From the NCBI GenBank assembly GCA_014685065.1, contig GCA_014685065.1_3930.1: 64,000 nt of DNA; one strand, written 5' to 3'. Of the stretch, positions 4,013 to 57,257 are shown in pieces. Position 1 is the stretch's first letter, and every line of letters begins with the position of its first letter. Source of the stretch: a phage. A program made the position numbers and the translations under genes. Below the pieces are notes generated by a model, which made no database searches, was not told the origin of the DNA, and worked only from the letters and a program-made list of their open reading frames with translations.

Positions 4013-4067
4013 GGTCTCTCCAAAGTTATTTTTAGAGGGTCTTTTACGACCCTCATAGTTGTTAAAA

Positions 4068-6302
4068 CTAAACACCACAACCCTCGCAATAAGCATCTTG
4101 CAGTGCAGATTTACCTACACCAATGCGACTGTTAAGGTAGTACATGGTTTTCATACCTACCGAGTTGGCATAAATCATGTACTTCAAAGCTTGAGCCAAT
4201 GATACCTTCTTAGCTTTTGCGTAGTCAACATAGAAATCTGAAGAGATAGCTTGACCAGTGAACTTTTGAACAATTGCATAACAATCAATCAGGTCAAAGG
4301 TGTCAATACCCCAAGCAATTTCATATACATACTTCAACTCTTCATAATCTGGAACAATAAACAGTACGTTACCAGTTGCAGACTTTTTAGTTAAAATAAA
4401 GTCACGAATTGGATACAAGCCATTTGTCGTATTGGTTGCCAGTGAAGAACTCTCATTAGGCATGTAAGCTTCTAATACAGAGTTTCGGATTCCACCATTT
4501 TCTTTGATACGTTGTGCTAAGTCATCCCAATCATATCGTAGTTTTGCATCATGCTTTTCATCAATCTTCTTGTTAGCTGTCTTTGGAGGAACCCAGCCTT
4601 CGGGATACTTAGTGAACTTCATGTATTCTGGAACGCCACGCTCTTTAGCAAGTCTCAGCGAGGCTTCATGCAGATAGTAAGAGTGCATCTCTGCAAGTTC
4701 ATGAAGTTTCGTTTTACCTGCTCGTGAAGAGTAGTTCACGTAGTTCTTCGCAAGGTAATGAGCCACATTTGTAAGGCCAATCCCAACAGAACGACGCTTC
4801 TGAACATGGTTACGCATCGACGGATACGGATAATCCATAAGGTCAATAACGGAGTCAACCATTGCAAGAGCATAATAAGCAACGTCAGCGTATTCATCTT
4901 CTGAAATTCTCCCTGCAACCAAACTAGCTAGGAAGCAAAGAGCTACCTCACCATCCTCTTTCACAGCATCATCTCTGTAAAGGTCTGTCTCTTTCTCAAA
5001 GCCGTACACTGGCAACACAATTTCCATACAAAGATTTGACATCTTCAAAGGCTCTTTAAATGGTGTATGTGTGTTTGCATTATTCGTGAAGAATGGGTAC
5101 ACACGGCCTGTTGCATAACGCTGCTGGATAAACAGTTTAGCAATTTCACGAGCCTTTACTCGTCTGTGCTTAACACCTGAATGCACTGCGTGACCAACTG
5201 CCATAGCAAACTCATCAGCAGATGCTGTGTAGAACATGTCATAGAGTTTTGGTGCATCTTTGTAAGAGAATAGCAACCAATCTGTATCATACTGAACACA
5301 CTGCCAGAAATAATCGTTTGTGCCGAATGAGTAGTCCATCTCATTAATACGTTTAGAAGGAACCGTTGTAGGGTGCTTCAAACGCAGTAAATCTTCAATC
5401 TGCGGGTCTAGAGCAGTGTAGAAGTTATTAGCTGAACCACCACGACTCTTCTGTTTGTTTGCCTCTACAGATGAGCGTACAAGCTTGTAATAAGGTAGTT
5501 TACCCATGTGCTCAATAGTATTTTGACGGATACCATCACCAATAGTACGAGTCTCCATCAGCATCCCAATGCCAGCTTGCTTTGTAGTCATATCATAAGC
5601 AACCTTTGCAGCAATACCGAGAGATTCGGCAGTGTCATTTGCCTTAATCAAACAGCATGACGCATAACCTGATTTAGTTGCTCTTAAACCGTTTAAATAT
5701 GGCGTAGGCGCGTTAATCTTCAGGTCAGATAGGTAAGTGTACAGCTTGATAACATCTTGCAGTCTACGGTGCTTTGGTTGCTTCTCAAAGGCTTTCATAG
5801 CCATACCCATGAACATAAATTGTGGTGACTCAAAAAGTCTTCCCGTTTTAATATCACGGATACCATACTTGTCTCTGAACTGTTTCAAGACTGCATAACC
5901 GTAAGAGATATCTTTTGAGTGCACAATGTAACCTTGCAGGTATTCAAGCTCTTCCTGTGAGTAGTCCATCTTCTCCCAAAGTCCTGCTCTCTCCATATTT
6001 TTAACGAAGGTAACCAGCGTAGGAACCTTAGTAAAGCCTCCAAAGGCTTCTTTGTAGATAATACCCAAAAGTAGCCGTCCAGCCATATCTGAGTACTCTT
6101 GAGTTTGTTTATCAACACAAACATCAATCATGGCTTGGTGCATCTCTTTTGTAGTGCAACCCTCATAGACACGTTTCATAGCTTCCATAGTGACTTCTGA
6201 CCAGATAATTCCACGTTTATCTGCCCATGATGCCCACTTATTCAGTCTTTCTGGGTCAAAGCTTACTACTGTACCGTTTGATTTTTTAATTGTCTTAATC
6301 AT
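4068..6302 (-). CDS. nrdA: ribonucleotide reductase class Ia alpha subunit
   Basis: 744 aa; N-terminal ATP-cone-like region; C-terminal tail cysteines (CEGCGV). Confidence 0.9.
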   Translation of the reverse strand: MIKTIKKSNGTVVSFDPERLNKWASWADKRGIIWSEVTMEAMKRVYEGCTTKEMHQAMIDVCVDKQTQEYSDMAGRLLLGIIYKEAFGGFTKVPTLVTFVKNMERAGLWEKMDYSQEELEYLQGYIVHSKDISYGYAVLKQFRDKYGIRDIKTGRLFESPQFMFMGMAMKAFEKQPKHRRLQDVIKLYTYLSDLKINAPTPYLNGLRATKSGYASCCLIKANDTAESLGIAAKVAYDMTTKQAGIGMLMETRTIGDGIRQNTIEHMGKLPYYKLVRSSVEANKQKSRGGSANNFYTALDPQIEDLLRLKHPTTVPSKRINEMDYSFGTNDYFWQCVQYDTDWLLFSYKDAPKLYDMFYTASADEFAMAVGHAVHSGVKHRRVKAREIAKLFIQQRYATGRVYPFFTNNANTHTPFKEPLKMSNLCMEIVLPVYGFEKETDLYRDDAVKEDGEVALCFLASLVAGRISEDEYADVAYYALAMVDSVIDLMDYPYPSMRNHVQKRRSVGIGLTNVAHYLAKNYVNYSSRAGKTKLHELAEMHSYYLHEASLRLAKERGVPEYMKFTKYPEGWVPPKTANKKIDEKHDAKLRYDWDDLAQRIKENGGIRNSVLEAYMPNESSSLATNTTNGLYPIRDFILTKKSATGNVLFIVPDYEELKYVYEIAWGIDTFDLIDCYAIVQKFTGQAISSDFYVDYAKAKKVSLAQALKYMIYANSVGMKTMYYLNSRIGVGKSALQDAYCEGCGV

Positions 6303-13091: not shown

Positions 13092-13835
13092 TTAAACTTT
13101 AATGATGGCTCTTAGCTTGTTCTCAAGGTCTGCAAGAGTACCATTATTATGAATAATGTCACGCTCATATTTTGTAGAAATCCCATTTTCTGAAACATGT
13201 GATGAAACTTTGTCCACATTGTCTCTTTTTACTTCAATAGTTTGGTGTGCAAATCTACTCAGCCATTCAGCTTCAGAGTCAAATCTTAAATCACTGATTA
13301 AGACAAAACCATATTGATTTCTAAGTGAGCACATTTCATGGAATCTAACCATTCTTTTTTCAAGGTCTTTAGACCAGAACTTGTCGCCCATTACTTTACG
13401 GACAACTTCAGTACCCCAAATCTGTTGAATTTGTCTTGATGAGAATTTATACTTTTTACTAAACCCCAGACGTGTCAATAGAGTCGGTTTAGCAACCTTC
13501 TTAAGCTCCATGATTAATCGTCCGGTTAACTCTGACATAAGCTTGGAGTCCATATGGTAACGTTCATCTCTGAAGGTGAACTCCATAGCTTCCGTAACTT
13601 TAAACATCAGTTCAGGATATGATAAGTCAAAAACCTGTGGAGTCTCTTTAGTTTCACCGTACAGGTCATTCCAAGTCAAGTCAAATATCTTTGATGCAGA
13701 TAGTTTAAGGTTGTCTGCAAAGGCCATTACTTCAACATTATAGCCGTATTCATCCTCTAAGATGTTCTTCACAATAGAACATGAGGTGTCTTTTCCAGAA
13801 CGTGCCTTTCCAGTAAATGCAATAATATTACTCAT
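13092..13835 (-). CDS. deoxynucleoside monophosphate kinase-like protein
   Basis: 247 aa; N-terminal P-loop IIAFTGKARSGKDT closely resembles the T4 gp1 dNMP kinase start; similar length. Confidence 0.65.
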   Translation of the reverse strand: MSNIIAFTGKARSGKDTSCSIVKNILEDEYGYNVEVMAFADNLKLSASKIFDLTWNDLYGETKETPQVFDLSYPELMFKVTEAMEFTFRDERYHMDSKLMSELTGRLIMELKKVAKPTLLTRLGFSKKYKFSSRQIQQIWGTEVVRKVMGDKFWSKDLEKRMVRFHEMCSLRNQYGFVLISDLRFDSEAEWLSRFAHQTIEVKRDNVDKVSSHVSENGISTKYERDIIHNNGTLADLENKLRAIIKV

Positions 13836-13896
13836 TTTATCTCCCTTAATTACTAAAAAGCCCCCAACTAAGGAGGCTTGTAAGATTTATAAAGAC

Positions 13897-14697
13897 TTAG
13901 TGCAGTTGGTCAGCATACTCTTTTTCAGCCATAGCTGAGATTTGCTTCACAAAATCATCACCGAAGTTAATGCGTAGCTTCTCTTCAATGATTGAAGCAC
14001 CAATATTCACCAAAACATCATTGATTGCTTGCATACTAACGCCACCAGTCATTTCCTCAATGAACTCAATGCTCACACCCATCATCTGTGACAGTTGGAT
14101 TAGTGCAACGATATTCATCATCGTAGAGATAGCTGGAATCATCAGTGCAACTTTCACCTGAAGTGGTTCAATGTCAGCTACAGAGTCATTTTCAACAGCT
14201 TCTTCCAAAGACTCTTTAGTTTGCTGGATAATCTCTTTGATTCGTGGGTTTAATTCTTCTACGCCCCAATCAAGTTTTTCATATCGTGAAAGTTTCTCTT
14301 CCATACGCTTCTCAAGAACAGCCATAACAGCACTCGTTGATGAGATAAGCGTATCAATAATGAAATCAGTGTCCTTAGTCAGCAACAGTTCCTTATCTTC
14401 GTCTGACATCCTGATATAGTCATTCTTTTGCATTTCATAAAAAATGAACTCAGCAAGTGCATCAACACCAACCGCAATAGATGCCAGAGCAAGTGTAGTG
14501 TCTGTTAACATCATGTTGACCTGTTCTGCAAAAGCACCGTTATCAGACTTGTCTTCAGGCAAGTTATAGCTTGCAGGCATAAACTGTTCTGTGTAGTTGT
14601 TACCACGAAGAATCATAGCCATGCTTTCTACGGCATTGATTAAGAATGCTTCATCAACACCTTTATCTTCAAGCATCTTTTCTACATCGATATTCAT
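13897..14697 (-). CDS. hypothetical acidic protein
   Basis: 266 aa ORF, acidic, no recognised motif. Confidence 0.5.
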   Translation of the reverse strand: MNIDVEKMLEDKGVDEAFLINAVESMAMILRGNNYTEQFMPASYNLPEDKSDNGAFAEQVNMMLTDTTLALASIAVGVDALAEFIFYEMQKNDYIRMSDEDKELLLTKDTDFIIDTLISSTSAVMAVLEKRMEEKLSRYEKLDWGVEELNPRIKEIIQQTKESLEEAVENDSVADIEPLQVKVALMIPAISTMMNIVALIQLSQMMGVSIEFIEEMTGGVSMQAINDVLVNIGASIIEEKLRINFGDDFVKQISAMAEKEYADQLH

Positions 14698-49732: not shown

Positions 49733-49808
49733 TGGAGAATCCGAAGGGACTCGAACCCTTATAAACCTGTTTTGCAGACAGGCACATAGCCATTTCTGTC
49801 ACGGATTC
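49733..49808 (-). tRNA. tRNA-Cys (anticodon GCA)
   Basis: Hand fold: acceptor GAATCCG/CGGATTC, T-arm GGGTTCGAGTCCC, anticodon loop CTGCAAA, CCA encoded. Confidence 0.6.
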
Positions 49809-49812
49809 AAAT

Positions 49813-49905
49813 TGGAGGAAGATACCAGACTTGAACTGGTACACCGATTTCTCAGCTACTGGCAGTTTAGCAAACTGCTCCCTTACCTTTTAGGGTTAAT
49901 CTTCC
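49813..49905 (-). tRNA. tRNA-Ser (anticodon GCT), class II
   Basis: 93 nt; acceptor GGAAGAT/ATCTTCC, anticodon stem GCAGT/ACTGC with loop TTGCTAA, long variable arm. Confidence 0.55.
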
Positions 49906-49906
49906 A

Positions 49907-50641
49907 TTATTTCTGTAATGCGTTCTTCATTTCTGGTGTTGCAATAGTGTCAATTACACCAGTTTTACAGGCATCATCAAACCAGTCTGGTAAGATACCT
50001 GCTAAGAACCCATTGATATTCGTTTTAAGGTACTCTGCAATAAGGGCAGCTTCTTCTTCAATCATCTGCACAACTTCATCTGCATAAGCTGTAATCTTTG
50101 AGATACCTTCATTAATCTTACTGACAGCTTGGTTAGCTAAATCAGAAACAGTATCAAGACCCTTGTCAATAGCGTCTTGTAAGTCACTTAATACATCGTT
50201 AACACTCTCTAGTGTACTGTTAATCGTATCAATAGCTTTTTGACCATATTCTGTAGCAACACCCATAATACCACTGAACGGTGTACAACCAACTTGTTCT
50301 CCTGCTGCACCCATAACATTGGAATATCCATTTGCTACCTGCATACGTGATGAAAACTCATCAATAGATTTTTGACCGTAGTCTGTCAGGGTCTTAGTAG
50401 TTGCTGTAGTGCTTGTAAGGCTTGTTGTAAAGCTGTTTAGAAGGACTGTTGTAAGTCCAGCAGCAACAAGTTTCTCCTGCATTGTAGGGTCTGTTACAGA
50501 ACTAATAGAGCTTACAAGTGATGTAGAAGCAGCTACGGTTCCACCGAGAACTGCTGCACCAGTAATAAGTGGGTTAGAAAACCCTTTACCGGTTTTTAAG
50601 AGATTAAAAATCTCCTTACCTTGTTCTGTCATCTCTTTCAT
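49907..50641 (-). CDS. hypothetical Ser/Thr/Ala-rich protein embedded in the tRNA array
   Basis: Track ORF trimmed to an internal ATG so it does not overlap the tRNA at 50660-50734; about 244 aa. Confidence 0.4.
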   Translation of the reverse strand: MKEMTEQGKEIFNLLKTGKGFSNPLITGAAVLGGTVAASTSLVSSISSVTDPTMQEKLVAAGLTTVLLNSFTTSLTSTTATTKTLTDYGQKSIDEFSSRMQVANGYSNVMGAAGEQVGCTPFSGIMGVATEYGQKAIDTINSTLESVNDVLSDLQDAIDKGLDTVSDLANQAVSKINEGISKITAYADEVVQMIEEEAALIAEYLKTNINGFLAGILPDWFDDACKTGVIDTIATPEMKNALQK

Positions 50642-50659
50642 TAAGCACCTTTGAAATTG

Positions 50660-50734
50660 GTAGTCCAGTGGGATTTGAACCCTCTTCTCATGTTTTTCAG
50701 ACACGCGCTTTAACCATATAAGCTACTTGGACTA
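50660..50734 (-). tRNA. tRNA-Phe (anticodon GAA)
   Basis: Acceptor TAGTCCA/TGGACTA, T-loop TTCAAAT, anticodon stem CGTGT/ACATG with loop CTGAAAA. Confidence 0.5.
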
Positions 50735-50739
50735 TAAAT

Positions 50740-50815
50740 TGGGGTGACCTACGGGATTTGAACCCGTATAGACCATGTTCACAGCATGGGTCATTGCCAT
50801 TTATGATAAGGCCAC
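50740..50815 (-). tRNA. tRNA-His (anticodon GTG)
   Basis: Anticodon stem CCATG/CATGG, loop CTGTGAA; T-arm ACGGGTTCAAATCCCGT. Confidence 0.6.
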
Positions 50816-50846
50816 ATTTAAGGACTCTCGTAAGAACCCTTAGAAG

Positions 50847-50922
50847 TGGCAGCGGCATAAGGATTTGAACCTTAATAGGACAGCTTCAGAGACTGTTGCA
50901 TTGCCAGTTATGCTATACCGCT
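50847..50922 (-). tRNA. tRNA-Gln (anticodon CTG)
   Basis: D-stem GCAT/ATGC, anticodon loop CTCTGAA, T-arm TAAGGTTCAAATCCTTA. Confidence 0.55.
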
Positions 50923-50927
50923 AAATT

Positions 50928-51006
50928 TGGTACTCCATATCGGATTCGAACCGATACATAACACAGATTTTAAGTCTGGCCTCTCTGCCAATTGGAGTAA
51001 TGGAGC
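50928..51006 (-). tRNA. tRNA with Leu anticodon TAA but short variable arm (class I-like)
   Basis: Acceptor GCTCCAT/ATGGAGT, discriminator A, D-loop AATTGGCA, anticodon loop CTTAAAA, T-arm ATCGGTTCGAATCCGAT; aligns with the tRNAs at 51751 and 52329. Confidence 0.45.
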
Positions 51007-51008
51007 AT

Positions 51009-51084
51009 TGGCGGGGGATGTTGGAATTGAACCAACTTCTTCGATTTCAAAGACCGAGGTTTTAACCTTGTAAACTAATCCCCT
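51009..51084 (-). tRNA. tRNA-Gln (anticodon TTG)
   Basis: Anticodon stem TCGGT/ATCGA, loop CTTTGAA; T-arm GTTGGTTCAATTCCAAC. Confidence 0.55.
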
Positions 51085-51092
51085 TTAAATCT

Positions 51093-51650
51093 TTACTTTC
51101 TCAGTGGATGAATAAAGAATGCCAACATAACTCTTTCCCTTGAGAATGCTCTTTCTTCTGGGACAACACTTTTTAGTTTCCATCCAATATAAATTCTCCA
51201 GTAAAACTGTTTACCAAAGACTTTAATTGATGGGATAAAAGCGAATAATCCCCAAGCATTACTGTTCCACATTAGGAGATAACCTGTCTGATTATCTTCA
51301 GGGTCAGAACTTACGTTGATATTACCTTTCCACTTAGTAACATCTTTTACATCTCTTCCTAATACATGGTAAGAGAAGTTATAAGCTTTGTTTCTCCAGA
51401 GCCATCCGACTCTCTGCATGTAGACACCCAGCTTACCAATCTTTCTAATCTTAGCCCATCGTTCGATATGACCTTCGTCACCATCAATTGGATTGTCATA
51501 TGTCTCCATCCATCTAAATCCGAAAGGTAAGTGGCCTTTCTTCTCACTGTAAAATGGAACTACGAAAGGTGCTAAGATAACTGCTAAGGTTGCTGCTAAT
51601 GGTTCTAGCAAAGCTAGGAAAATCCATGAAGCATATTTTAAATATCTCAT
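51093..51650 (-). CDS. hypothetical membrane protein embedded in the tRNA array
   Basis: 185 aa; N-terminal TM segment (WIFLALLEPLAATLAVILAPFVV), Trp-rich body. Confidence 0.5.
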   Translation of the reverse strand: MRYLKYASWIFLALLEPLAATLAVILAPFVVPFYSEKKGHLPFGFRWMETYDNPIDGDEGHIERWAKIRKIGKLGVYMQRVGWLWRNKAYNFSYHVLGRDVKDVTKWKGNINVSSDPEDNQTGYLLMWNSNAWGLFAFIPSIKVFGKQFYWRIYIGWKLKSVVPEERAFSRERVMLAFFIHPLRK

Positions 51651-51669
51651 CTAAATAGCCTCTTTAAAT

Positions 51670-51745
51670 TGGCGCAGGATAAGGGATTCGAACCCCTATT
51701 AACAGCTTCGTAGACTGTTGCTCTATCCATTTGAACTAATCCTGC
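51670..51745 (-). tRNA. tRNA-Arg (anticodon ACG)
   Basis: D-arm GTTC...GAGC, anticodon stem ACAGT/GCTGT with loop CTACGAA. Confidence 0.55.
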
Positions 51746-51750
51746 AAAAT

Positions 51751-51828
51751 TGGTGTTCCAAGACGGATTCGAACCGTCACTAGTACAAGGTTTGAGCTTG
51801 CATCCTCTGCCAATTGGGATACTGGAAC
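51751..51828 (-). tRNA. tRNA with Leu anticodon CAA but short variable arm (class I-like)
   Basis: Acceptor GTTCCAG/TTGGAAC, discriminator A, D-loop AATTGGCA, anticodon stem GCAAG/CTTGT with loop CTCAAAC. Confidence 0.45.
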
Positions 51829-51829
51829 A

Positions 51830-51904
51830 TGGTACTCACTAAAGGACTTGAACCTTTTTCTTCATCTTGTAAGGGTGGTGTTTTACCATATAAACTAAGC
51901 GAGT
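51830..51904 (-). tRNA. tRNA-Val (anticodon TAC), tentative
   Basis: Good acceptor, D-arm (GTTT/AAAC) and T-arm (AAAGGTTCAAGTCCTTT); anticodon stem is weak, loop read as CTTACAA. Confidence 0.4.
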
Positions 51905-51910
51905 ATGAAA

Positions 51911-51992
51911 GAGGTCTGAAGTTGTGCCGCTAACTCAACTCCGTGGAATTTGTTACGGTCTTCAGTTGACACCAGCGGTCTTTCACTTGACC
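51911..51992. other. tRNA-sized structured element without canonical T-loop
   Basis: Terminal inverted repeat GAGGTC / GACCTC about 80 nt apart with internal hairpins (CCGT...ACGG); no GTTCRA motif on either strand. Confidence 0.35.
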
Positions 51993-51999
51993 TCTGAAT

Positions 52000-52076
52000 T
52001 GGTGCTGCTCACAGGACTCGAACCTGCATTTCCATCCTTACAAGGGATGTGTAATAGCCAATTATACGAAAGCAGC
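52000..52076 (-). tRNA. tRNA-Thr (anticodon TGT)
   Basis: Perfect anticodon stem CATCC/GGATG, loop CTTGTAA. Confidence 0.6.
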
Positions 52077-52082
52077 ATTGTT

Positions 52083-52157
52083 TGGAGCATCCAGAGGGAA
52101 TCGAACCCTCAACCTCAGTTTGGAAGACTGTAATTTTCCCGTTTAAACTATGGATGC
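52083..52157 (-). tRNA. tRNA-Gly (anticodon TCC)
   Basis: Acceptor GCATCCA/TGGATGC, anticodon loop CTTCCAA, T-arm GAGGGTTCGATTCCCTC. Confidence 0.55.
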
Positions 52158-52163
52158 ACTAAT

Positions 52164-52240
52164 TGGTGGAGAAGCAGGGAATTGAACCCTGTACTTAAGT
52201 TTGCAAAACTTATGTTTTAACCATGTAAACTACATCCCCA
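52164..52240 (-). tRNA. tRNA-Ala (anticodon TGC)
   Basis: D-stem GTTT/AAAC, anticodon stem TAAGT/ACTTA with loop TTTGCAA. Confidence 0.6.
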
Positions 52241-52245
52241 ATGTT

Positions 52246-52321
52246 TGGTACAGGTGGAGGGAATTGAACCCATCGTCTTACTGATTAAGAGTCAGCCGCA
52301 TAACCATTTTGCTACACCTGC
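52246..52321 (-). tRNA. tRNA-Lys (anticodon CTT)
   Basis: Anticodon loop CTCTTAA; paralogous in sequence to the Lys(TTT) tRNA at 53966. Confidence 0.5.
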
Positions 52322-52328
52322 ATTAATT

Positions 52329-52405
52329 TGGTACACCTAGAGAGATTCGAACTCACACTGAGCAGATTCTAAGTCTGCTGCCTCTACCAATTGGGCTATA
52401 GGTGC
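52329..52405 (-). tRNA. tRNA with Leu anticodon TAG but short variable arm (class I-like)
   Basis: Acceptor GCACCTA/TAGGTGT, discriminator A, D-loop AATTGGTA, perfect anticodon stem GCAGA/TCTGC with loop CTTAGAA, variable region only about 5 nt. Confidence 0.5.
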
Positions 52406-52663
52406 ATTAAATCTTTTTAGAGAACTTCTAAGAACCTAAGCAACAAGGTTCCACAACAAGCTGTAATAACCTTAGAAGCCCTCTAAAAAGACCTAATTTG
52501 GTCTTTGCATAGTCTTGTTTAATCCGGTGACTAGAACCTTTGGAGAGCTTGATATTATCTCTTCTCCGTGACACCTACTAGGTGCTTTACTGTGCGTGTA
52601 CGACAATACACGAGGGATACCAAAGCAACATCCGAATGAAGCTTGGCTTTAAATCTTATTAGG
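52406..52663 (-). ncRNA. structured non-coding spacer within the tRNA array (candidate small stable RNA)
   Basis: No ORF and no tRNA; several hairpins (CTTCTAAG...CTTAGAAG 8 bp; AGACC-taattt-GGTCT; CGTGTA-cgacaa-TACACG). Confidence 0.3.
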
Positions 52664-52751
52664 CGGTAAGTAAAGGAGTCGAACCCTCACCGTATCTCTA
52701 CAGTGGCAACTGTTTTCAAGACAGTTTGGCTACCATTAGCCGCTACCTACC
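52664..52751 (-). tRNA. tRNA-Ser (anticodon TGA), class II
   Basis: 88 nt; perfect anticodon stem ACTGT/ACAGT with loop CTTGAAA; long variable arm; CCA not encoded. Confidence 0.55.
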
Positions 52752-52764
52752 CCTAATAAGACTT

Positions 52765-52847
52765 TGGCATGGGACGGAGGAGTTGAACCACTTTGAAACG
52801 GTTTTGGAGGCCGTTGCTCATGCCTTAGAGTCTTAACATCGTCCCAC
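52765..52847 (-). tRNA. tRNA-Trp (anticodon CCA), atypical
   Basis: 83 nt; acceptor GTGGGAC/GTCCCAT, anticodon region ACGGC-CTCCAAA-ACCGT; T-stem imperfect. Confidence 0.4.
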
Positions 52848-52989
52848 ACTATAATTCGAAGCTTACCGTATTTTCACAACACTGTAAAGCCCCTTCTCAG
52901 ATTATTTACATGTTCTGGAAAACATGAGATACAGACCACCTCCTTACACGGAGACCCGATAAGGTCGTCTAAGCAATCTGCTAACTATT

Positions 52990-53066
52990 TGGCACACCCT
53001 ACAGGATTCGAACCTGTAACTAACGATTTAGAAGACCGTTGCTCTATCCAATTGAACTAAGGGTGC
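52990..53066 (-). tRNA. tRNA-Arg (anticodon TCT)
   Basis: Anticodon stem ACGGT/ATCGT, loop CTTCTAA; T-arm ACAGGTTCGAATCCTGT. Confidence 0.55.
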
Positions 53067-53313
53067 ATTAATCTTTAAAGACTCTCTTAGAAAGCCCTTA
53101 AAGATGCCCACCTTATTAATCATACCGTGGGCGAGTACGCCAAATTCTTTGATGAGGGATTGGAAGACCTCACTGGTGTTTAGCCTATCAAGCTACTGCC
53201 AGAAAAACATTGTCGTTTGCATTTATTTTAAATTTGCAAAATAGACGCTACGCAACGAAAACTAAGGTTACTATAAAGTGGTCACATCTCAATGTCAACA
53301 ACTTTATTGAAAT

Positions 53314-53389
53314 TGGTACTGTGAGAAGGATTCGAACCTTCTGCCTTTCGGTTATCAGCCGAATGCACATCCATATGTGCTTTCACAGC
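53314..53389 (-). tRNA. tRNA-Ile (anticodon GAT)
   Basis: Perfect anticodon stem TTCGG/CCGAA, loop CTGATAA. Confidence 0.6.
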
Positions 53390-53868
53390 ATTGTTACCCC
53401 TTCGTGTACCTCTCTGTGGCAATTTGCACACAGTAATACACACTTATCAACTTCAGACTTCATTACCTCTATAGAGAAGTGTTTTTGTCCTACTGTGAAG
53501 TCCTTTGTATTAGGGTCTAAGTGGTGAAACTCTAAAGCCTTTATGCACTTATTGTATCCACAAATTGAGCAACAACCACCTTTGTAATCAACTAAAACCC
53601 TCTTAAGTTTGTCACGAGACTTTTTAACGTGTTGTGACTTCGCTTTCTTTTCTTCATCGGGGTTTTTGTATTGTTTCAGAATACCATTTGAAATACATTC
53701 ATCACAATACTTTCTTGATTTTGGTGTTTGTTTTCCACATGAATGACAAGAGCCTTCTTGTCTTCTTTTTGGATGACTCTTGTTGTTTACCCTTGCAGCA
53801 CAAGAGCGTGAACAATATTTTCCGCCTTTAACGGCTTTGTTGTCACAATCTTTATTAGCACAAAACAT
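53383..53868 (-). CDS. HNH homing endonuclease
   Basis: Trimmed to ATG 53866-53868 (RBS GGTGA) so it does not overlap tRNAs; Cys-rich N-terminal region; C-terminal HNH motif EFHHLDPNTKD...CANCHREVH. Confidence 0.7.
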   Translation of the reverse strand: MFCANKDCDNKAVKGGKYCSRSCAARVNNKSHPKRRQEGSCHSCGKQTPKSRKYCDECISNGILKQYKNPDEEKKAKSQHVKKSRDKLKRVLVDYKGGCCSICGYNKCIKALEFHHLDPNTKDFTVGQKHFSIEVMKSEVDKCVLLCANCHREVHEGVTML

Positions 53869-53884
53869 AATATCACCAACGAAT

Positions 53885-53961
53885 TGGAGGTTCAGATGGG
53901 AATCGAACCCACATTCATAGGGCTTATGAGACCCCTGCATTACCTTATCTGCGACTGAACC
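53885..53961 (-). tRNA. tRNA-Met (anticodon CAT)
   Basis: Acceptor GGTTCAG/CTGAACC perfect; anticodon stem GGGGT/GCCCT, loop CTCATAA. Confidence 0.55.
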
Positions 53962-53965
53962 ATAT

Positions 53966-54041
53966 TGGTAGAAGTGGAGGGATTCGAACCCATCGCCTGT
54001 CAGATTAAAAGTCTGCCGCATCACCATTCTGCTACACTTCC
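53966..54041 (-). tRNA. tRNA-Lys (anticodon TTT)
   Basis: Anticodon loop CTTTTAA; T-arm ATGGGTTCGAATCCCTC. Confidence 0.5.
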
Positions 54042-54045
54042 ATTA

Positions 54046-54181
54046 AAATTATCTTTGTAGATAAGCTATCCAGACTTGCTTAAGGTCTGTAGCGATGTGC
54101 CTTGTTGGGTTTAAATCTAGAATTTACCCTTTCACTCTTTGTGGTCGCATACTCACAGGTAAGCTTAATAACTTATCTACA
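54046..54181. repeat. 19-bp perfect inverted repeat flanking a ~98-nt spacer
   Basis: aattatctttgtagataag (54046-54064) is the exact reverse complement of cttatctacaaagataatt (54163-54181); inner CAGAC...GTCTG hairpin. Confidence 0.55.
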
Positions 54182-54241
54182 AAGATAATTACCAGACCGT
54201 TGTTTATCATCTTAAGTGCTACCATTACACCAACTCGACAT

Positions 54242-54266
54242 CTGCCGAGTGAAGGAATCGAACCTT
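54242..54266 (-). other. tRNA 3'-half-like fragment (T-arm plus acceptor 3' strand only)
   Basis: Canonical GAAGGTTCGATTCCTTC T-arm followed by ACTCGGC-A, but no complementary 5' acceptor strand found within 120 nt. Confidence 0.3.
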
Positions 54267-54497
54267 CGCCTTTTCTTTACCGGAGAAATAGATTGTTTAA
54301 GTTTTGCTGTAAACGGTCTTCTGTAAATTTGTTGAGCCAGACCAAGTTTTAAATTTTCAAAATTAAATTGGCTTGAAATTTCATACATTCTTGCTGTATT
54401 TGGTCTTCTGCTCCTTTAAAGAATACTCGTAAGAACCCTTTAAGGGAGGGGCTAAATAGCCCTCTCAAAACATCATCTTGAAATACTTATTATAATT

Positions 54498-54574
54498 TGG
54501 CGGTTACGAAGGGATTTGAACCCTCATCATCTCCCGTGACAGGGGAGTATTTTAACCAGTTAAACTACATAACC
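54498..54574 (-). tRNA. tRNA-Asp (anticodon GTC)
   Basis: Perfect anticodon stem CTCCC/GGGAG, loop CTGTCAC; D-stem GTTT/AAAT. Confidence 0.6.
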
Positions 54575-54580
54575 TTTATT

Positions 54581-54668
54581 TGGTGTGCCGTGTAGGAGTC
54601 GAACCTACCGAGTCTCAATGACAAGGGATTTACAGTCCCCACCGCTACCATCTACGGGATAACGACAC
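54581..54668 (-). tRNA. tRNA-Tyr (anticodon GTA), class II
   Basis: 88 nt; anticodon stem GGGGA/TCCCT, loop CTGTAAA; long variable arm. Confidence 0.5.
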
Positions 54669-54737
54669 ATTTAATTTCTATTCAGGCTAAGGACTTGCAC
54701 CTTACAAATCGGTGAGCAATCGCTTCTCTCCTAAATT

Positions 54738-54814
54738 TGGCGGTTAGTCAGGGATTCGAACCCTGTGCCATTCGCTTAACAGGCGACCGCACATACCTTA
54801 TGTGCTTCCTAACC
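54738..54814 (-). tRNA. tRNA-Asn (anticodon GTT)
   Basis: Anticodon loop CTGTTAA; T-arm CAGGGTTCGAATCCCTG. Confidence 0.5.
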
Positions 54815-54891
54815 TTAATACATTGCCAGACCGTGTTTTTTCTTTTATCCGCAAAAAGTATTTTGTTGCTGAATACGGTCTTCTGCAAAAT

Positions 54892-54968
54892 TGGAGGCGG
54901 GTGCAGGAGTCGAACCTGCCGATACCATGCTAATGAGACATGTGAGACGCCCTTTCTCTATACCCGCA
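54892..54968 (-). tRNA. tRNA with anticodon CAT (Met or Ile2), tentative
   Basis: Anticodon stem CATGT/GCATG, loop CTCATTA (position 37 is T, unusual); 1-72 mismatch in acceptor. Confidence 0.4.
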
Positions 54969-55059
54969 ATTCTTAATGACCAGACCAAATCTCTTCTTTG
55001 TCCGATTTACCTTCAGATGAATAAGATTAAGTTTGCTGTAATTGGTCTTCTGTCAAAAC

Positions 55060-55137
55060 TGGCGTTCCAGAAGGGATTTGAACCCTCAAATATCCACTTT
55101 GAAAGAGTGGTGACTTTACCATTTTGTCTACTGGAAC
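55060..55137 (-). tRNA. tRNA-Glu (anticodon TTC)
   Basis: Perfect acceptor GTTCCAG/CTGGAAC and anticodon stem CCACT/AGTGG, loop CTTTCAA. Confidence 0.6.
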
Positions 55138-55144
55138 ATTAATT

Positions 55145-55224
55145 TGGTCTCCGTTGAAGGATTTGAACCCTCGACCCCTTGCTCCCAAAGCAAGTGCTGC
55201 TAAACCAAACTGAGCTAAACGGAG
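55145..55224 (-). tRNA. tRNA-Pro (anticodon TGG)
   Basis: Perfect acceptor CTCCGTT/AACGGAG and anticodon stem CTTGC/GCAAG, loop TTTGGGA with G37. Confidence 0.6.
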
Positions 55225-55342
55225 ATAAACTTTTCAAACTCTATGTAACCACTTTAACATTATTTTTTAGTGGTTGTCAAGAACTTTTTTAAAATATTTT
55301 TCAGTATCTTAGAAAAGCTCTCATTTCGTTTCTATGTAGAAC

Positions 55343-55389: not shown

Positions 55390-56805
55390 TTACCAGATGT
55401 AACGGTCAATCATTACTGCTTTGAGCATTACGCTGATTGGGTCAAACTTCTCACCACCAAGCAGAGCTTTTAAAGTGGCTGGAGAGAACCCTGATACCAT
55501 TGCTACACCATTATCCTTAACAGATACTTCGCAAGTACCATTACGGTTTGCTAAGTACCAGAATACCAGTTGTGGCATTTTGTATCCAGCTTTTTTGTAC
55601 TTACTACGAATCGCTTCAAAGTTTGTACGACCATTAGCTCCATCAACCTGATTGAACTCCATATCAGAGAAGATAATAAGCTTACTTGGCATATCTTTCT
55701 GAGTCAAGTTGTTTCTCTTACCTGTTTCAAGAATGCGGTCAAAAGCTGCTTGTAAGTTAGTTGAGCCATATTCAACGTGTCGCATCACCTGACGATGACG
55801 GTTTCGTAAATCACCACTCAGTTCGATGAAGTGAGGGTTTGTCGAATAAACCATCAACTCATTCTTAAAGCAACCTGTATTGCGTTCTGCTACATACAAG
55901 GCAAGTGATACACCAATATCCAGAGCAGTAATGGAGCCAAAATTCACCCAAGACATTGAACTTGATACATCAGACATACACAAGATGTTTTCACCTTCTG
56001 CCATCCAGTTTGGTAGTGCTTTCCACTGCTCATTAGCAACATCTGCATTACCATACTTGACAGATTTAATCACATCGTATGGGTAAACAGCACCAGCGTT
56101 AATCTTAGTCTCACCTTTTGATAAGGACTCGATGTAAGCTTTGTAACGCTCTCCATCTTTACGGTTAAACAGTTTTTGGTAACGTGCAGCAGCAAGTGAA
56201 GGAATCTTACTGTAGTCAATCTTACCAAACTCATTAGCAGAGATTTTTTGCTCAACTGTATCAGATAGTGCAGACAACAGTGTGCGATACTCTTTCTCAC
56301 TCAAGTTTGCAAACTTGCAGAAACGTTTTACAAACTGTTTGTGACGTGGTTTTACTCGTGGTAACCACTTAGCTGCTAAACCTGCTGTTGCAGGGTCTAG
56401 TAAAGCTGCTTCTAAATGTTTGAAGGCATCTGTCTCGAAACGAGTACCTACAAAGATTTTGAAGTCATCAAAGCGACCAAGCTCTGCAATCTTATCCATA
56501 ATGCGAAGAACCTGCGTAGGCTCTAAAACTTTATCTTCAATCGCTTGAAGTAAAACAGTTCGGAAAGCTTTACGCTCACCCATACCTTCTCGTACATCTC
56601 GCATATGCAGTAAAATACGAACTGCAACATCAACATCCTCATGCAAAGCTTTGTAGAACAAGTCTGGTAAGATTTCTACATTGCTACGGCTGGAACCAGC
56701 AGCTTTGTAAAAGTCCACAAGAGCAGACATTGATGAAGTATGGTTTACAGCACCATTTTCAGTTCGACCTGCATGAAGGTGCGCATGTTTAAATAATTCG
56801 CTCAT
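55390..56805 (-). CDS. von Willebrand factor A (vWA) domain protein, possibly Ro60/TROVE-like
   Basis: 471 aa; C-terminal region has a MIDAS-like DxSxS motif (MSDVSSSMS) and later LIIFSDMEF; N-terminal half is helical. Adjacent to the tRNA array. Confidence 0.5.
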   Translation of the reverse strand: MSELFKHAHLHAGRTENGAVNHTSSMSALVDFYKAAGSSRSNVEILPDLFYKALHEDVDVAVRILLHMRDVREGMGERKAFRTVLLQAIEDKVLEPTQVLRIMDKIAELGRFDDFKIFVGTRFETDAFKHLEAALLDPATAGLAAKWLPRVKPRHKQFVKRFCKFANLSEKEYRTLLSALSDTVEQKISANEFGKIDYSKIPSLAAARYQKLFNRKDGERYKAYIESLSKGETKINAGAVYPYDVIKSVKYGNADVANEQWKALPNWMAEGENILCMSDVSSSMSWVNFGSITALDIGVSLALYVAERNTGCFKNELMVYSTNPHFIELSGDLRNRHRQVMRHVEYGSTNLQAAFDRILETGKRNNLTQKDMPSKLIIFSDMEFNQVDGANGRTNFEAIRSKYKKAGYKMPQLVFWYLANRNGTCEVSVKDNGVAMVSGFSPATLKALLGGEKFDPISVMLKAVMIDRYIW

Positions 56806-56885: not shown

Positions 56886-57257
56886 TTATTTTTTGAGGGT
56901 TGCAACAGCAGAGAACGTTGGTTTGTTATCTGTCTGAGACTGACCGCCGTTATCAGGGGTCTTCTTAGTGTCTGCTGCAATTGCTTTCATCTCACCTGCT
57001 GAGTGAGTCATGATAGTTTTACCGACCTCAATCATACTCTTGATGGTTACGTCATCTGTGTTTAACCCGAACTCTGCAAGCTTAGCCGCGTCCCTTGTAA
57101 CAATCGCCTCAAACAGCTTTGCAGCGAACTCAGCAGAATTATCAATGGTCAGTTGAGCTTTTACGAGTGAGCTTTTGTTACGAGAGCCTTTTGGTCTTCC
57201 AGATGGGTTTCCAGACTGGCCTTTTTTAAACTGGCCTTTGTTTGTTCTGTTTTTCAT
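56886..57257 (-). CDS. small basic protein with AT-hook-like GRP motif
   Basis: 123 aa; N-terminus KGQFKKGQSGNPSGRPKGSRNK. Confidence 0.45.
   Translation of the reverse strand: MKNRTNKGQFKKGQSGNPSGRPKGSRNKSSLVKAQLTIDNSAEFAAKLFEAIVTRDAAKLAEFGLNTDDVTIKSMIEVGKTIMTHSAGEMKAIAADTKKTPDNGGQSQTDNKPTFSAVATLKK

Follow-up and report, generated by a model that had tools for sequence, protein, structure and literature searches.

Candidate Y-like RNAs, one with a tRNA-mimicking body, beside a gene for a Ro60-like protein in the tRNA array of a Felix O1-like phage

The window analysed here, a stretch of 64,000 nucleotides from a Felix O1-like phage, contains 26 tRNA genes on the minus strand. An array of tRNA genes and small RNAs begins directly downstream of a gene for a 471-residue Ro60-like protein (55390..56805, minus strand), with a helical-repeat ring and a vWA domain (Pfam DUF2828 and DUF7788). 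The Ro60 fold was shown for this protein, which matches neither Pfam TROVE nor, at the sequence level, any Ro60 in the PDB. The array also contains inserted genes for HNH homing endonucleases. A consensus scan identified a sigma-70-like promoter match just upstream of tRNA-Pro (55251..55280, minus strand; 10 of 12 consensus matches and a TG extension), and, as far as sequence can tell, a transcript bearing the tRNAs and the RNAs described below might start there.

Four RNAs encoded in the array, all on the minus strand and called a to d, have a 'handle' in common. It is made up of AAG, a terminal stem of 6 bp, in which the first G is paired with the C of a CUG at the 3' side, and UNCAGCAA, which comes immediately after the stem's 5' strand. 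RNA a (67 nt, 54981..55047), between tRNA-Glu and tRNA-Met, has the stem GACCAA/UUGGUC, UUACAGCAA and CUG. It is preceded by a TTGACA hexamer that neither the other copies nor other phages conserve, and its relative in L010 has GACCGA/UUGGUC, a G.U-compatible change. Between tRNA-Met and tRNA-Asn is RNA b (54 nt, 54827..54880; fold z-score -2.90), with GACCGU/ACGGUC, AUUCAGCAA and CUG. RNA c (68 nt, 54338..54405), found by scan and fold, carries GACCAA/UUGGUC, AUACAGCAA and CUG and is located directly upstream of RNA d. RNAs a, b and c are shorter paralogs of RNA d in which the tRNA parts are absent. The 5' ends of the four handles lie 0.3-1.1 kb downstream of the DUF2828 gene, on its strand, and the set is over by 1.2 kb. 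A scan of the 64-kb window found no handle near any of the 12 tRNA genes at 49733-52405.

RNA d (126 nt, 54193..54318) coincides with the second of three tRNA-like features to which an earlier note on this DNA had drawn attention, all of which have to be read on the strand of the tRNA array. That note described, at 54242-54266, a T-arm and an acceptor 3' strand with no matching 5' strand. The canonical T-arm, GAAGG-UUCGAUU-CCUUC followed by ACUCGGC, is indeed there; however, GUCGAGU (54233-54239), 4 nt downstream, pairs with ACUCGGC over 7 bp. Both halves are thus present and contiguous, in permuted order, which does not support a split gene. In the minimum free energy (MFE) fold, the handle of RNA d (GACCGU/ACGGUC, UUACAGCAA, CUG) surrounds a circularly permuted tRNA-like body in the order V, T, capped acceptor, D. 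It comprises a variable-arm-like hairpin, UUUCU-CCGGUAA-AGAAA (54272..54288), the T-arm (54251..54267), the loop-capped acceptor-like stem ACUCGGC-AGAU-GUCGAGU (54233..54250) and a canonical D-arm, GUGU-AAUGGUA-GCAC (54216..54230), with A14, G18 G19 and A21, preceded by a U8-like UG.

RNA d occurs in 246 related genomes and is almost never annotated there. In an alignment of relatives, 95.7% of the stem cells are paired, compared with 41-49% when the stems are slid. The acceptor stem is 100% paired in nine sequences, with three pairs changed on both sides (ACACGUU/GGCGUGU in Henu11, Sf16 and SUSP2; ACCCUUC/GAAGGGU in Mordin and HP1), while the T-arm, whose stem is invariant in nine Ounavirinae, the D-arm and the handle do not change. 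The acceptor is capped by a loop of 2-8 nt, and CCA is absent. Among relatives, the loop that would correspond to an anticodon loop varies in sequence and length (CCGGUAA, CUGAUAA, CUUAUAA, CGGUAA), and the position-48 equivalent is C, U or A and does not covary with A15.

The handle also recurs far beyond this phage. In distant viral contigs we found 75 same-strand handles at fixed spacing in 75 contigs, with less than one expected (0-2 in shuffles); on the opposite strand of the same contigs there were one at fixed spacing and four over all spacings. With the relatives of our phage and the window included, 83 of 106 handles lie at most 2 kb from a DUF2828 gene. An independent set of bacterial genomes yielded 21 same-strand and two opposite-strand handles, with about one expected, mostly at most 350 nt upstream of the DUF2828 gene. 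The linkage holds genome-wide in very distant phages and bacteria, and handles adjoin the gene in phages of Listeria, Campylobacter, Staphylococcus, Enterococcus, Bacillus, Yersinia and Mycobacterium. In an unbiased pairing test, an exact 6-nt complement with UG was present for 77 of 139 5' motifs, whereas permuted stems gave 3.2; 43 distinct stems were represented, and nearly every copy has a stem sequence of its own in which pairing is preserved. The strict scan found no handle at 29 of 75 viral loci and most Clostridia loci, and the relaxed scan has substantial background. Members with a tRNA-like body are present at unrelated loci (L012, L028, L036, L037, L056, L073 and Lolly9). The handle RNAs apparently form a large family, undescribed so far.

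Judged by its sequence, the end motif of the handle closely resembles that of the Class I RNAs (RF01414; Kjellin et al. 2021, PMC7919456), for which all reports to date come from Dictyostelium amoebae. Apart from tRNA, no Rfam family but RF01414 matched the short elements repeatedly, and its matches coincide exactly with coordinates that had been defined independently: it gave 24 bits for RNA b, 19.7 for RNA a, 12.8 for RNA d and 25-30 at loci L006, L130 and L024, all below its gathering threshold of 41.5. RNAs of both kinds start with AAG and have a variable, covarying 6-bp terminal stem, whose invariant first G has the C of a terminal CUG(U) as its partner; (C)UUACAGCAA directly follows the 5' strand of the stem, the interior is variable, the typical length is ~55-65 nt, and the genes form tandem clusters. 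In handle RNAs, the spacing from the stem to CAGCAA is one nucleotide shorter, and the RNAs of the window end in CUGG and others in CUGU or CUGA, or in AGU in the case of mycobacteriophages. Class I RNAs come from eukaryotic genes that have a DUSE promoter and have been described as unique to Dictyostelia; the one direct binder proven for them is the RRM protein Rnp1A, which is not Ro-like, and tRNA-like members have not been reported among them.

The architecture of RNA d is that of the bacterial Y RNA YrlA (RF02553), in which the order is V-T-AS-D and the ends form the stem that binds Rsr, the Ro60 ortholog (Chen et al. 2014, PMC4201824). As with YrlA, the RNA is encoded beside and on the same strand as a gene for a Ro60-fold protein, its two ends pair to form a terminal stem, after which comes a conserved single-stranded motif, and its interior is a permuted tRNA mimic with V, T-arm, capped acceptor stem and D-arm. 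A longer tRNA-like RNA stands alongside shorter ones devoid of a tRNA body, like YrlA and YrlB, and RNA-repair genes, often found near YrlA, are present near the DUF2828 gene in other phages, with RtcB-type ligases in some. Handle-family members align to the Rfam YrlA model in their T, AS and D arms, not in their terminal stems, and the model scores 38.9, 39.2, 28.7 and 37.7 bits on tRNA-like members of other loci (E down to 5e-5), every match being below the gathering score of 69; it does not detect RNA d of the window, even at E <= 10. The handle motif, UNCAGCAA flanked by AAG and CUG, differs from known Ro-binding sites (GGUCCGA / GNCGAAN0-1G). In contrast with YrlA systems, the protein belongs to DUF2828/DUF7788 rather than TROVE, and RNAs a-d are interspersed with genuine tRNA genes. 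Another phage system, the TROVE-annotated Ro60 of Thermus phage phiLo (PDB 9KOP, 9L5Y), has Yrl1 and Yrl2, which were chosen by their CGAA motif and stem-bulge-stem shape; its description has no tRNA array and no CAGCAA handle (PMC12135203).

Based on these features, we consider it likely that RNAs a-d are phage Y-like RNAs and that the second locus of the earlier note is the tRNA-mimicking effector domain of RNA d, the other two being separate. We infer that the four RNAs are transcribed, probably released from a polycistronic tRNA transcript by tRNA-processing nucleases, and bound by the Ro-like protein, for which the handle would be a putative docking site, as the terminal stem of Y RNAs is for Ro60/Rsr. 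As to downstream functions, the variable interior would serve as an effector module; with the permuted tRNA body of RNA d, the particle could engage tRNA-recognising enzymes or nucleases, such that RNA quality control or repair is steered to tRNAs during infection, or such that the RNA acts as a decoy.

Alternatively, the repeats might be cis-acting punctuation of the tRNA operon, i.e. hairpins for RNase E, RNase III or RNase P, which are close to DUF2828 genes because these genes habitually adjoin tRNA arrays. In many phages both the gene and the RNAs are indeed embedded in tRNA arrays, and cleavage could be signalled by the conserved A-rich flank on the 5' side and by the CUG(U/A) end. However, there are few or no tRNAs around gene-adjacent handles in many bacterial contigs and in Campylobacter, Staphylococcus and Mycobacterium phages, and in the window all four handles cluster downstream of the DUF2828 gene, with none at the 12 more distant tRNA genes. 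A conserved single-stranded 6-mer with a covarying stem is, moreover, typical of a protein-binding site, and we regard punctuation as unlikely. It is still less probable that the elements act as DNA, as promoters, terminators, recombination or homing-endonuclease sites or miniature mobile elements, as their inverted termini and dispersal as short repeats, the HNH genes of the array and the TTGACA before RNA a might suggest. The consensus scan found no promoter-like or terminator-like site coincident with RNAs a-d, and that TTGACA is not a conserved feature. The stems keep pairing despite their divergence, and the strand bias relative to the gene is 75 to 1, 21 to 2 and 24 to 3 in three scans. 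Some variants make G.U pairs, where the opposite strand would have C-A mismatches instead; since such pairs are rare (7 of 114 in the bacterial-genome set), the case for selection on RNA over DNA rests mainly on the strand asymmetry and the one-sided motif.

In circularly permuted tRNA genes (Cyanidioschyzon merolae, some archaea) and in two-piece (permuted) tmRNA, the tRNA-like 3' half is also encoded upstream of the 5' half, as in RNA d, and processing yields a functional tRNA, or a tmRNA with an aminoacylatable CCA end. RNA d could similarly be a permuted or intron-containing tRNA-Thr(GGU) gene whose product is circularised or spliced into a decoding tRNA, with which the presence of all tRNA arms in permuted order, an ARAGORN 'permuted tmRNA' seeded on the orthologous element in Mordin and HP1, and the RtcB-type ligases of some phages with a DUF2828 protein would agree. 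We nevertheless find this most improbable. The acceptor is capped without CCA, which the genuine tRNA genes here encode, neither an anticodon nor a tag reading frame is conserved, the putative anticodon loop being wholly replaced in Mordin and HP1, and RNAs a, b and c share the ends of RNA d but contain no part of a tRNA. Run on the window, the intron mode of ARAGORN yields no such gene. In REP5, a 131-nt 'tRNA-Thr(GGT)' was annotated at this locus, the V hairpin having been misread as a GGU anticodon arm; this annotation, which begins within RNA c and depends on a mismatched acceptor stem, is artefactual.

The leading idea of the earlier note, that its three loci are decaying or pseudogenised tRNA genes left from turnover in the array, has just as slim a chance. 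The loci do lie inside the array, some relatives have 'tRNA pseudogene' or 'tRNA-OTHER' annotations there, and the third locus is variably present. However, those annotations sit on the tRNA-Tyr and tRNA-Asp genes, and a neutral remnant is unlikely given the near-invariance of the first and third loci, the double substitutions that preserve the stems of RNA d and the recurrence of its architecture in unrelated phages. No tRNA was called at any of the three by ARAGORN (default, intron and lowered-threshold modes) or by the Rfam tRNA model at its gathering score, the best sub-threshold match being that to the second locus (22-24 bits; 23.8 for RNA d). The three features are more than chance, the first two being conserved in about 250-260 related phage genomes, but they are three different things rather than one class, and none is a decaying tRNA gene. 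The suggestion of a tRNA-derived regulatory or decoy RNA came close for RNA d, as a tRNA mimic in a Y-RNA-like molecule beside a Ro60-like gene; the other two loci are not convincingly tRNA-derived.

The third locus is an optional module of ~60 nt (54673..54732, minus strand) between tRNA-Asn and tRNA-Tyr, with a T-arm-like hairpin, UAAGG-UGCAAGU-CCUUA. The reported AAGG-UGCAAGU-CCUU does occur at 54689-54703, but folding it as a T-arm (-10.0) costs ~6 kcal/mol relative to the MFE (-16.1; fold z-score -2.64). The module is found in the window, L007, Henu11, Mordin and Sf16 and is precisely absent in REP5, HP1 and L010; it is covered by 107 records and near-identical wherever present.

The first locus is a hairpin of ~87 nt (51909..51995, minus strand) between tRNA-Thr and tRNA-Val, not tRNA-like and belonging to a separate family. 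Of the termini noted earlier, GAGGTC is at 51911-51916, while GACCTC is at 51989-51994, extending 2 nt beyond the end given, and the absence of a T-loop was confirmed. A 7-bp stem, AGAGGUC/GACCUCU, closes the hairpin (MFE -30.7 kcal/mol, z-score -2.86), whose consensus fold has 24 pairs with no double changes. It has no Rfam match. We found it in 260 records, mostly with at least 95% identity; it is near-invariant across Felixounavirus, Mooglevirus and Suspvirus, and an 81% homolog lies right after tRNA-Gly in the Vequintavirinae phage TH18. It is an independent, sequence-constrained hairpin RNA shared with an unrelated phage subfamily. Phage tRNA clusters encode small stable RNAs of unknown function, such as species 1 and 2 (RNA C and D) of T4, to which this hairpin can be likened by its setting alone, as a conserved structured non-tRNA sequence between tRNA genes, and its RNA would be freed by the same processing as theirs.

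The window is DNA of a Felix O1-like phage (Ounavirinae), and its region 51500-55300 is 92-98% identical to Felix O1 and to many relatives infecting Escherichia and Salmonella. ARAGORN predicted 26 tRNA genes between positions 49733 and 55224, all on the minus strand, and 24 of them were confirmed at the Rfam gathering score. Since the tRNA genes are on the minus strand throughout, we read on that strand the three loci between 51911 and 54712 (loci 1 to 3) that the earlier note had taken for tRNA remnants. The sequence features claimed for them are all present. The termini of locus 1, GAGGTC (51911-51916) and GACCTC (51989-51994), close a long hairpin with a 7-bp stem, locus 2 (54242-54266) consists of a perfect T-arm followed by ACUCGGC, and locus 3 contains AAGG-UGCAAGU-CCUU. 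By the note's own account, intact tRNA genes covering these loci, for example with introns, would refute its reading. ARAGORN in its default, intron and lowered-threshold modes called none there, nor did the Rfam tRNA model (RF00005) at its gathering score. The best sub-threshold match to this model is a partial one at locus 2, with 22-24 bits against a threshold of 29. The intron and lowered-threshold modes yielded extra calls only outside the three loci, at 51539-51620 and 52765-52852.

The second of these calls corresponds to an odd tRNA-like sequence just upstream of tRNA-Ser(UGA) (52765-52852, minus strand). ARAGORN reported it solely at the lowered threshold, as a 'tRNA-???' whose anticodon has 4 bases, and its score with the Rfam tRNA-Sec model is 21 bits. 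An acceptor-like stem of 6 bp, GGGACG/CGUCCC, is present, and the loop CUCCAAA could present a CCA (Trp) anticodon; Trp is the sole amino acid without a tRNA in the array of the window. Between tRNA-Met and tRNA-Ile, an ORF at 53383-53872 (minus strand) encodes a cysteine-rich HNH-type endonuclease. It looks like a mobile homing-endonuclease insertion, because these two tRNA genes are just 2 nt apart in the related phage REP5. HNH endonucleases are annotated in the same array of relatives. The array also contains an inverted repeat with 27-nt arms just upstream of tRNA-Leu(UAG) (52406-52432 / 52471-52497), as well as similar hairpins, UCUUUAAAG...CUUUAAAGA, ahead of tRNA-Arg(UCU) (~53070-53110) and of a small RNA that we called RNA c (~54415-54450). 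The tRNA-Asp slot is under remodelling in some relatives: REP5 has at this position (2982-3067 of its sequence) a 'tRNA-OTHER' of 86 nt, whose anticodon region is enlarged (CUCCCACGUAAAAGGAUAUUGGGAG) and whose T-arm differs.

Locus 2 is the core of one of four small RNAs in the array, RNAs a to d. The earlier note had found no 5' strand to match its acceptor sequence; in fact, the matching strand is located 4 nt downstream rather than upstream. In the minimum free energy (MFE) fold of 54328-54186 (minus strand), the ends of RNA d pair as a terminal stem, GACCGU/ACGGUC, lengthened by CUUAA/UUAAG, and enclose four hairpins. From 5' to 3', these are a V hairpin (UUUCU-CCGGUAA-AGAAA), a T-arm (GAAGG-UUCGAUU-CCUUC), an acceptor-like stem capped by a tetraloop (ACUCGGC-AGAU-GUCGAGU) and a canonical D-arm (GUGU-AAUGGUA-GCAC) that comes after a U8-like UG. 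The order is thus V, T, capped acceptor and D, and the ends of the RNA emerge at the place of the would-be anticodon stem. We found the element in 246 related genomes, where it is hardly ever annotated; the annotation of the Felix O1 reference lacks it as well. Between RNA d and tRNA-Lys, there is an inverted repeat whose 23-nt arms, 96% complementary, enclose 98 nt (54047-54069 / 54168-54190).

We aligned nine RNA d orthologs from Felixounavirus, Mooglevirus and Suspvirus. All nine keep the capped acceptor stem paired despite its changed sequence (ACUCGGC/GUCGAGU, ACACGUU/GGCGUGU and ACCCUUC/GAAGGGU), with three pairs altered on both sides, while no change was seen in the T-arm stem, the D-arm or the terminal stem. 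Altogether, 95.7% of the alignment cells are paired, compared with 41-49% when the partners are slid. An annotation in REP5 places a 131-nt tRNA-Thr(GGT) over locus 2, which we rejected as an artefact. The loop of the hairpin that would be its GGU anticodon arm varies in both sequence and length among the orthologs and is wholly replaced in phages Mordin and HP1. A circularly permuted tRNA gene was also considered and rejected, as its candidate anticodon loop is this variable one, and the acceptor stem is capped by a loop of 2-8 nt and lacks CCA, whereas the genuine tRNAs of the array encode it. Given the pairing kept under sequence change, the variable 'anticodon' loop and the lack of CCA, RNA d is neither a remnant nor a decoding tRNA. 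ARAGORN reported a 'permuted tmRNA' with the tag peptide ANDNVFLAVA over the RNA d ortholog of both Mordin and HP1 (3485-4234 in these sequences). The call is almost certainly spurious, having arisen from the permuted tRNA-like topology, and it represents a trap for automatic annotation.

A scan for the terminal stem and its flanks, which we called the handle, identified RNAs a (54981-55047), b (54827-54880), c (54338-54405) and d (54193-54318), all on the minus strand. Their common layout is AAG, a 6-bp stem, 3 nt, CAGCAA, a variable interior, the complementary strand of the stem and CUG. The exact sequence CAGAAGACC occurs five times in the 64-kb window, and four of these sites are those of RNAs a to d. 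Variants in relatives stay paired by means of G.U pairs, as in GACCGA/UUGGUC or GGCCGU/ACGGUC. Such pairs are rare in handle stems (7 of 114). The four window copies have in addition an outer helix flanking AGAA/UG that covaries (UGAC/GUCA, UUGC/GCAA, GAGC/GCUC and UUAC/GUAA), but we rejected it as a family feature, as it amounts to 4.07 bp across the family versus 4.20 bp in permuted controls. We also rejected promoters or terminators as an explanation of the handles, since no consensus-like site for such elements coincides with RNAs a to d; promoter-like sites were found upstream of tRNA-Pro and of the adjacent gene coding for a DUF2828 protein. The four RNAs would be released from the polycistronic tRNA transcript, which fits the lack of promoter-like or terminator-like sites at their positions. 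A handle-like match with a 4-nt spacing, GAGCCA-UUUG-CAGCAA...UGGCUC-UG, spans 209 nt in REP5 (398-606) and is also present in comparison sequences L002, L009 and L011, in the part that corresponds to ~51100-51650 of the window. In several relatives, it sits inside a 558-nt hypothetical ORF between tRNA-Gln and tRNA-Arg; its window copy fails the handle scan, and the match is possibly due to chance.

The DUF2828 gene (55390-56805, minus strand) is directly upstream of the array and on the same strand. It codes for a 471-residue protein with the Pfam domains DUF2828 and DUF7788 and no TROVE match in Pfam, and a phmmer search of PDB sequences returned nothing at E <= 0.01. Some depositors have labelled it 'RNA-binding protein' or 'Ro-like RNA binding protein'. 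As single-sequence structure prediction gave too poor a model (pLDDT 45), we used instead an AlphaFold model based on an alignment of 46 homologs (pLDDT 88.9, pTM 0.89). Foldseek comparison of this model with solved structures yielded Ro60, TROVE or Rsr proteins as all of the best 10 matches, over nearly the full length and with 9-16% identity to Ro60 structures. The protein is thus predicted to have the Ro60/TROVE architecture, in which a vWA domain with a MIDAS motif comes after a ring of helical repeats; the corresponding DxSxS signature is invariant among the homologs. DUF2828 proteins are found in 710 phage records, including phages of enterobacteria, Vibrio, Aeromonas, Campylobacter, Listeria, Staphylococcus, Enterococcus, Bacillus and Mycobacterium, as well as in hundreds of bacterial contigs and in giant viruses. 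Among the latter, the fold was found in Pithovirus, Marseillevirus, Mimiviridae, CroV and Bodo saltans virus, and homologs have been reported in mimivirus-like sequences and in poplar. A gene at 56886-57257 (minus strand), directly upstream of the Ro-like one, codes for a 123-residue DUF5681 protein, and an ORF of the same size (372 nt) occupies this position in Mordin, HP1, Sf16 and SUSP2.

RNAs a to d start 0.3-1.1 kb downstream of the Ro60-fold gene on the same strand. They are thus placed as expected of Y RNAs in the broad sense, which are RNA partners of a Ro60 protein encoded within a few kb of its gene and on its strand, and they may be such partners. This linkage is repeated in three independent sequence sets. 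In 75 distant viral contigs encoding DUF2828 proteins 38-47% identical to that of the window, we ran a strict scan for G plus 5 nt, 3 nt, CAGCAA and a downstream complement ending in C-UG. It retrieved 75 matches on the strand of the gene versus one on the opposite strand at the same spacing (four over all spacings), and 20 dinucleotide shuffles gave 0-2 matches. At least one handle is present in 46 of the 75 contigs, and when the window and the Felix O1-type relatives are included, 83 of 106 copies lie at most 2 kb from the DUF2828 gene. Sites ascertained by the 5' motif alone number 139 on the gene strand and 17 on the opposite one. An exact 6-nt Watson-Crick complement followed by UG occurs downstream of 77 of the 139, compared with 3.2 for permuted stems, and of none of the 17; the 77 paired handles comprise 43 different stem sequences. 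The flanks in this wider family are mostly AAAG, UUAG or UAAG on the 5' side and CUGU or CUGA on the 3' side, whereas the window copies end with CUGG.

The independent set of bacterial assemblies (80 contigs) yielded 21 same-strand and two opposite-strand matches, with ~1 expected. Nearly all are located within 350 nt upstream of the DUF2828 gene, in lineages that include Chloroflexi, Spirochaetia, Endomicrobium, Rickettsiales and Actinobacteria. Among phages, a tandem of three copies is located just upstream of the gene in Listeria phage LMTA-34, Campylobacter phage F368 has one copy, and mycobacteriophage Lolly9 has three handles with an AGU tail immediately downstream of the gene. The strict scan undercounts handles, because variants such as CAGCUA occur. 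When the tail requirement was dropped, tandem copies were found beside the gene in phages of Staphylococcus, Enterococcus, Bacillus and Yersinia, for a total of 24 same-strand and three opposite-strand matches; with 0-6 matches in the controls, the background of this relaxed scan is appreciable. On these statistical and comparative grounds, handle RNAs are associated with DUF2828 genes, and RNAs and proteins together would form a putative ribonucleoprotein of the Ro/Y-RNA type.

Other structured RNAs are encoded near DUF2828 genes and tRNAs. In LMTA-34 (4428-4979 and 1941-2039) and in sequence L130 (1007-1068), we detected a ROOL RNA (88.5 bits, E 2e-16, just below gathering), a drum RNA (50.2 bits, above gathering) and, ~270 nt upstream of a DUF2828 gene, a freshwater-1 RNA, which at 82.7 bits is above gathering. 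The last of these is devoid of the CAGCAA motif, and we regard it as a neighbour and not as a catalogued relative of the handle RNAs. Between handle RNAs upstream of the DUF2828 gene of L130, a 109-nt match to the tRNA model (796-904, 42.5 bits) has a long insertion containing CACAGCAAG, and it may be another hybrid of a tRNA body and a handle motif. One distant DUF2828-encoding viral contig (L026) also harbours a group I intron at 13696-13922 (71.5 bits, above gathering).

The permuted order of RNA d (T-arm, capped stem, D-arm) recurs in unrelated loci, including L012, L028 (two), L036, L037, L073 (two) and Lolly9, while a family member in L056 has D, anticodon and T arms in the normal order. 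The bacterial Y RNA YrlA is a tRNA mimic bound by the Ro60 ortholog Rsr (Chen et al. 2014, PMC4201824), and the folded RNA d, with pair counts from nine orthologs, resembles it in having V, T, capped acceptor and D hairpins enclosed by a stem formed by the ends of the RNA. The YrlA model (RF02553; gathering score 69) gave sub-threshold matches to family members in L073 (38.9 and 28.7 bits), L026 (39.2 bits) and Lolly9 (37.7 bits), with E-values down to 5e-5, and no match to the window RNA d at E <= 10. In the RF02553 alignment of these members, the T, acceptor-like and D arms match and the terminal stems do not, which suggests a YrlA-like tRNA body joined to a handle of another kind. [quoted passage not shown] Genes for an RtcB-type ligase, an RNA ligase or a phosphoesterase are located nearby in several phages. 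This proximity of RNA-repair genes to a Ro-like gene is reminiscent of the rsr-yrlBA-rtcBA arrangement of Salmonella.

The handle also resembles Class I RNAs of Dictyostelium. Out of 4227 Rfam families, Dicty_Class_I_RNA (RF01414) is the sole non-tRNA family that repeatedly matched the short elements, at exactly the coordinates that we had defined independently for the handle RNAs. The window scores are 24, 19.7 and 12.8 bits. Aeromonas phage 4_4572 reaches 29.8, 29.6 and 28.0 bits, a Micavibrio contig 28.1 bits and a viral contig 25.4 bits, and all of these scores, those of the window included, are below the gathering threshold of 41.5; as the cut-off for candidates, Kjellin et al. (PMC7919456) took at least 25 bits with a covariance model. 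According to these authors, Class I RNAs are ~60 nt long, start with AAG and end with CUGU, and are encoded by clustered genes. They have a 6-bp stem of variable, covarying sequence with an invariant first G paired to the C of CUGU, the 11-nt motif CCUUACAGCAA after the 5' strand of the stem, and a variable interior. The window handle (AAG-GACCGU...ACGGUC-UG) similarly has a 5' G paired to a 3' C and AAG/CUG flanks, and phage handles agree with this description in most features, their spacer being shorter by 1 nt. At the position of the 11-nt motif, they have UUACAGCAA, AUUCAGCAA or AUACAGCAA, with an invariant CAGCAA, and their conserved U is one position off the invariant U3 of the Class I motif. 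Class I RNAs have eukaryotic genes with a DUSE promoter ~60 nt upstream, whereas the phage elements lie in a bacteriophage tRNA operon, to which a eukaryotic promoter does not apply.

Kjellin et al. found no Class I RNA outside Dictyostelia. In their preprint, DdR-21, a Class I RNA, pulled down GuaB, NdkC, Rnp1A/CIBP and DDB_G0281243, a protein to which they assigned no known function and on which we found nothing further published. As a hypothesis, phage handle RNAs could be linked to Class I RNAs, in view of the multi-feature handle match, the RF01414 matches, the DUF2828 proteins of giant viruses and poplar, and the uncharacterised protein that binds a Class I RNA. We consider it conceivable, if somewhat doubtful, that CAGCAA-handle RNAs and DUF2828 Ro-like proteins make up an ancient ribonucleoprotein system, parallel to Ro60/Y RNA and distributed over phages, bacteria, giant viruses and eukaryotes. 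Its eukaryotic representatives would be the Class I RNAs, whose stem and 11-nt motif, for long without an explanation, would dock a DUF2828/Ro-like protein, with DDB_G0281243 as one candidate. If true, Class I RNAs would have a role in RNA surveillance like that of Y RNAs and not one specific to multicellularity. The likeness of the handles makes what the amoeba RNAs bind and do directly testable.

Ro60/Y RNA particles, a human autoantigen, constitute a classic system of RNA surveillance. To our knowledge, their bacterial and phage counterparts are known from a limited set of TROVE-annotated genomes. Y RNAs with CGAA motifs have been described with the Ro60 homologs of mycobacteriophages (Chen et al. 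2014, PMC4201824) and of Thermus phage phiLo (PMC12135203), and some jumbo phages were noted in general terms to have TROVE proteins and a tRNA-like partner (PMC7824862). We found no report in the literature in which DUF2828 proteins are Ro-like partners to a family of CAGCAA-handle RNAs, none on handle RNAs in Felix O1-type phages and none on a relation of these to Class I RNAs, and no family of Rfam 15 captures them. Our data indicate that DUF2828 represents a much larger sister clade of Ro-like proteins with its own modular small RNAs, which share a putative docking motif unlike that of Y RNAs and some of which are tRNA mimics. This would assign a function to a widespread 'domain of unknown function' and account for many gaps left without annotation in phage tRNA arrays. 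Phage Ro particles and tRNA mimics in infection could be studied in a tractable model, Felix O1 with Salmonella or its relatives with E. coli, with tRNA repair, quality control and the decoying of tRNA-cleaving defences as possible roles.

Locus 3 belongs to a ~60-nt module (54673-54732). Its copies in the window, L007, Henu11, Mordin and Sf16 are nearly identical, and it is precisely missing, with the same boundaries (ATTT | AAATG), from REP5, HP1 and L010. It is covered by 107 records. The degenerate T-arm proposed in the earlier note is disfavoured, as the corresponding fold (-10.0 kcal/mol) is ~6 kcal/mol worse than the MFE fold (-16.1 kcal/mol), and we found no evidence of ties to tRNA or to the handle family. 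With its flanks, the module can form a 7-bp outer stem (z -2.64).

Locus 1 lies in the spacer between tRNA-Thr and tRNA-Val, which does not resemble a tRNA and matches no Rfam family. Its hairpin (-30.7 kcal/mol, z -2.86) is among the best-conserved sequences of the array, with 260 records mostly at >= 95% identity, and ~85 nt are nearly invariant over three genera among which the identity of RNA d has dropped to 74%. A copy 81% identical to it, with an identical 27-nt core (GUCAACUGAAGACCGUAACAAAUUCCA), follows tRNA-Gly immediately in the tRNA array of TH18, an unrelated phage of the Vequintavirinae. The constraint is mainly on sequence, because the 24 pairs of the consensus fold show no double substitutions. 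The sole compensatory pair seen by eye, in TH18, hinges on a 1-nt register shift, and we rejected it as support for covariation. The sequence GAAGACCGU, which is the 5' handle strand of RNAs b and d, occurs in locus 1 as well.
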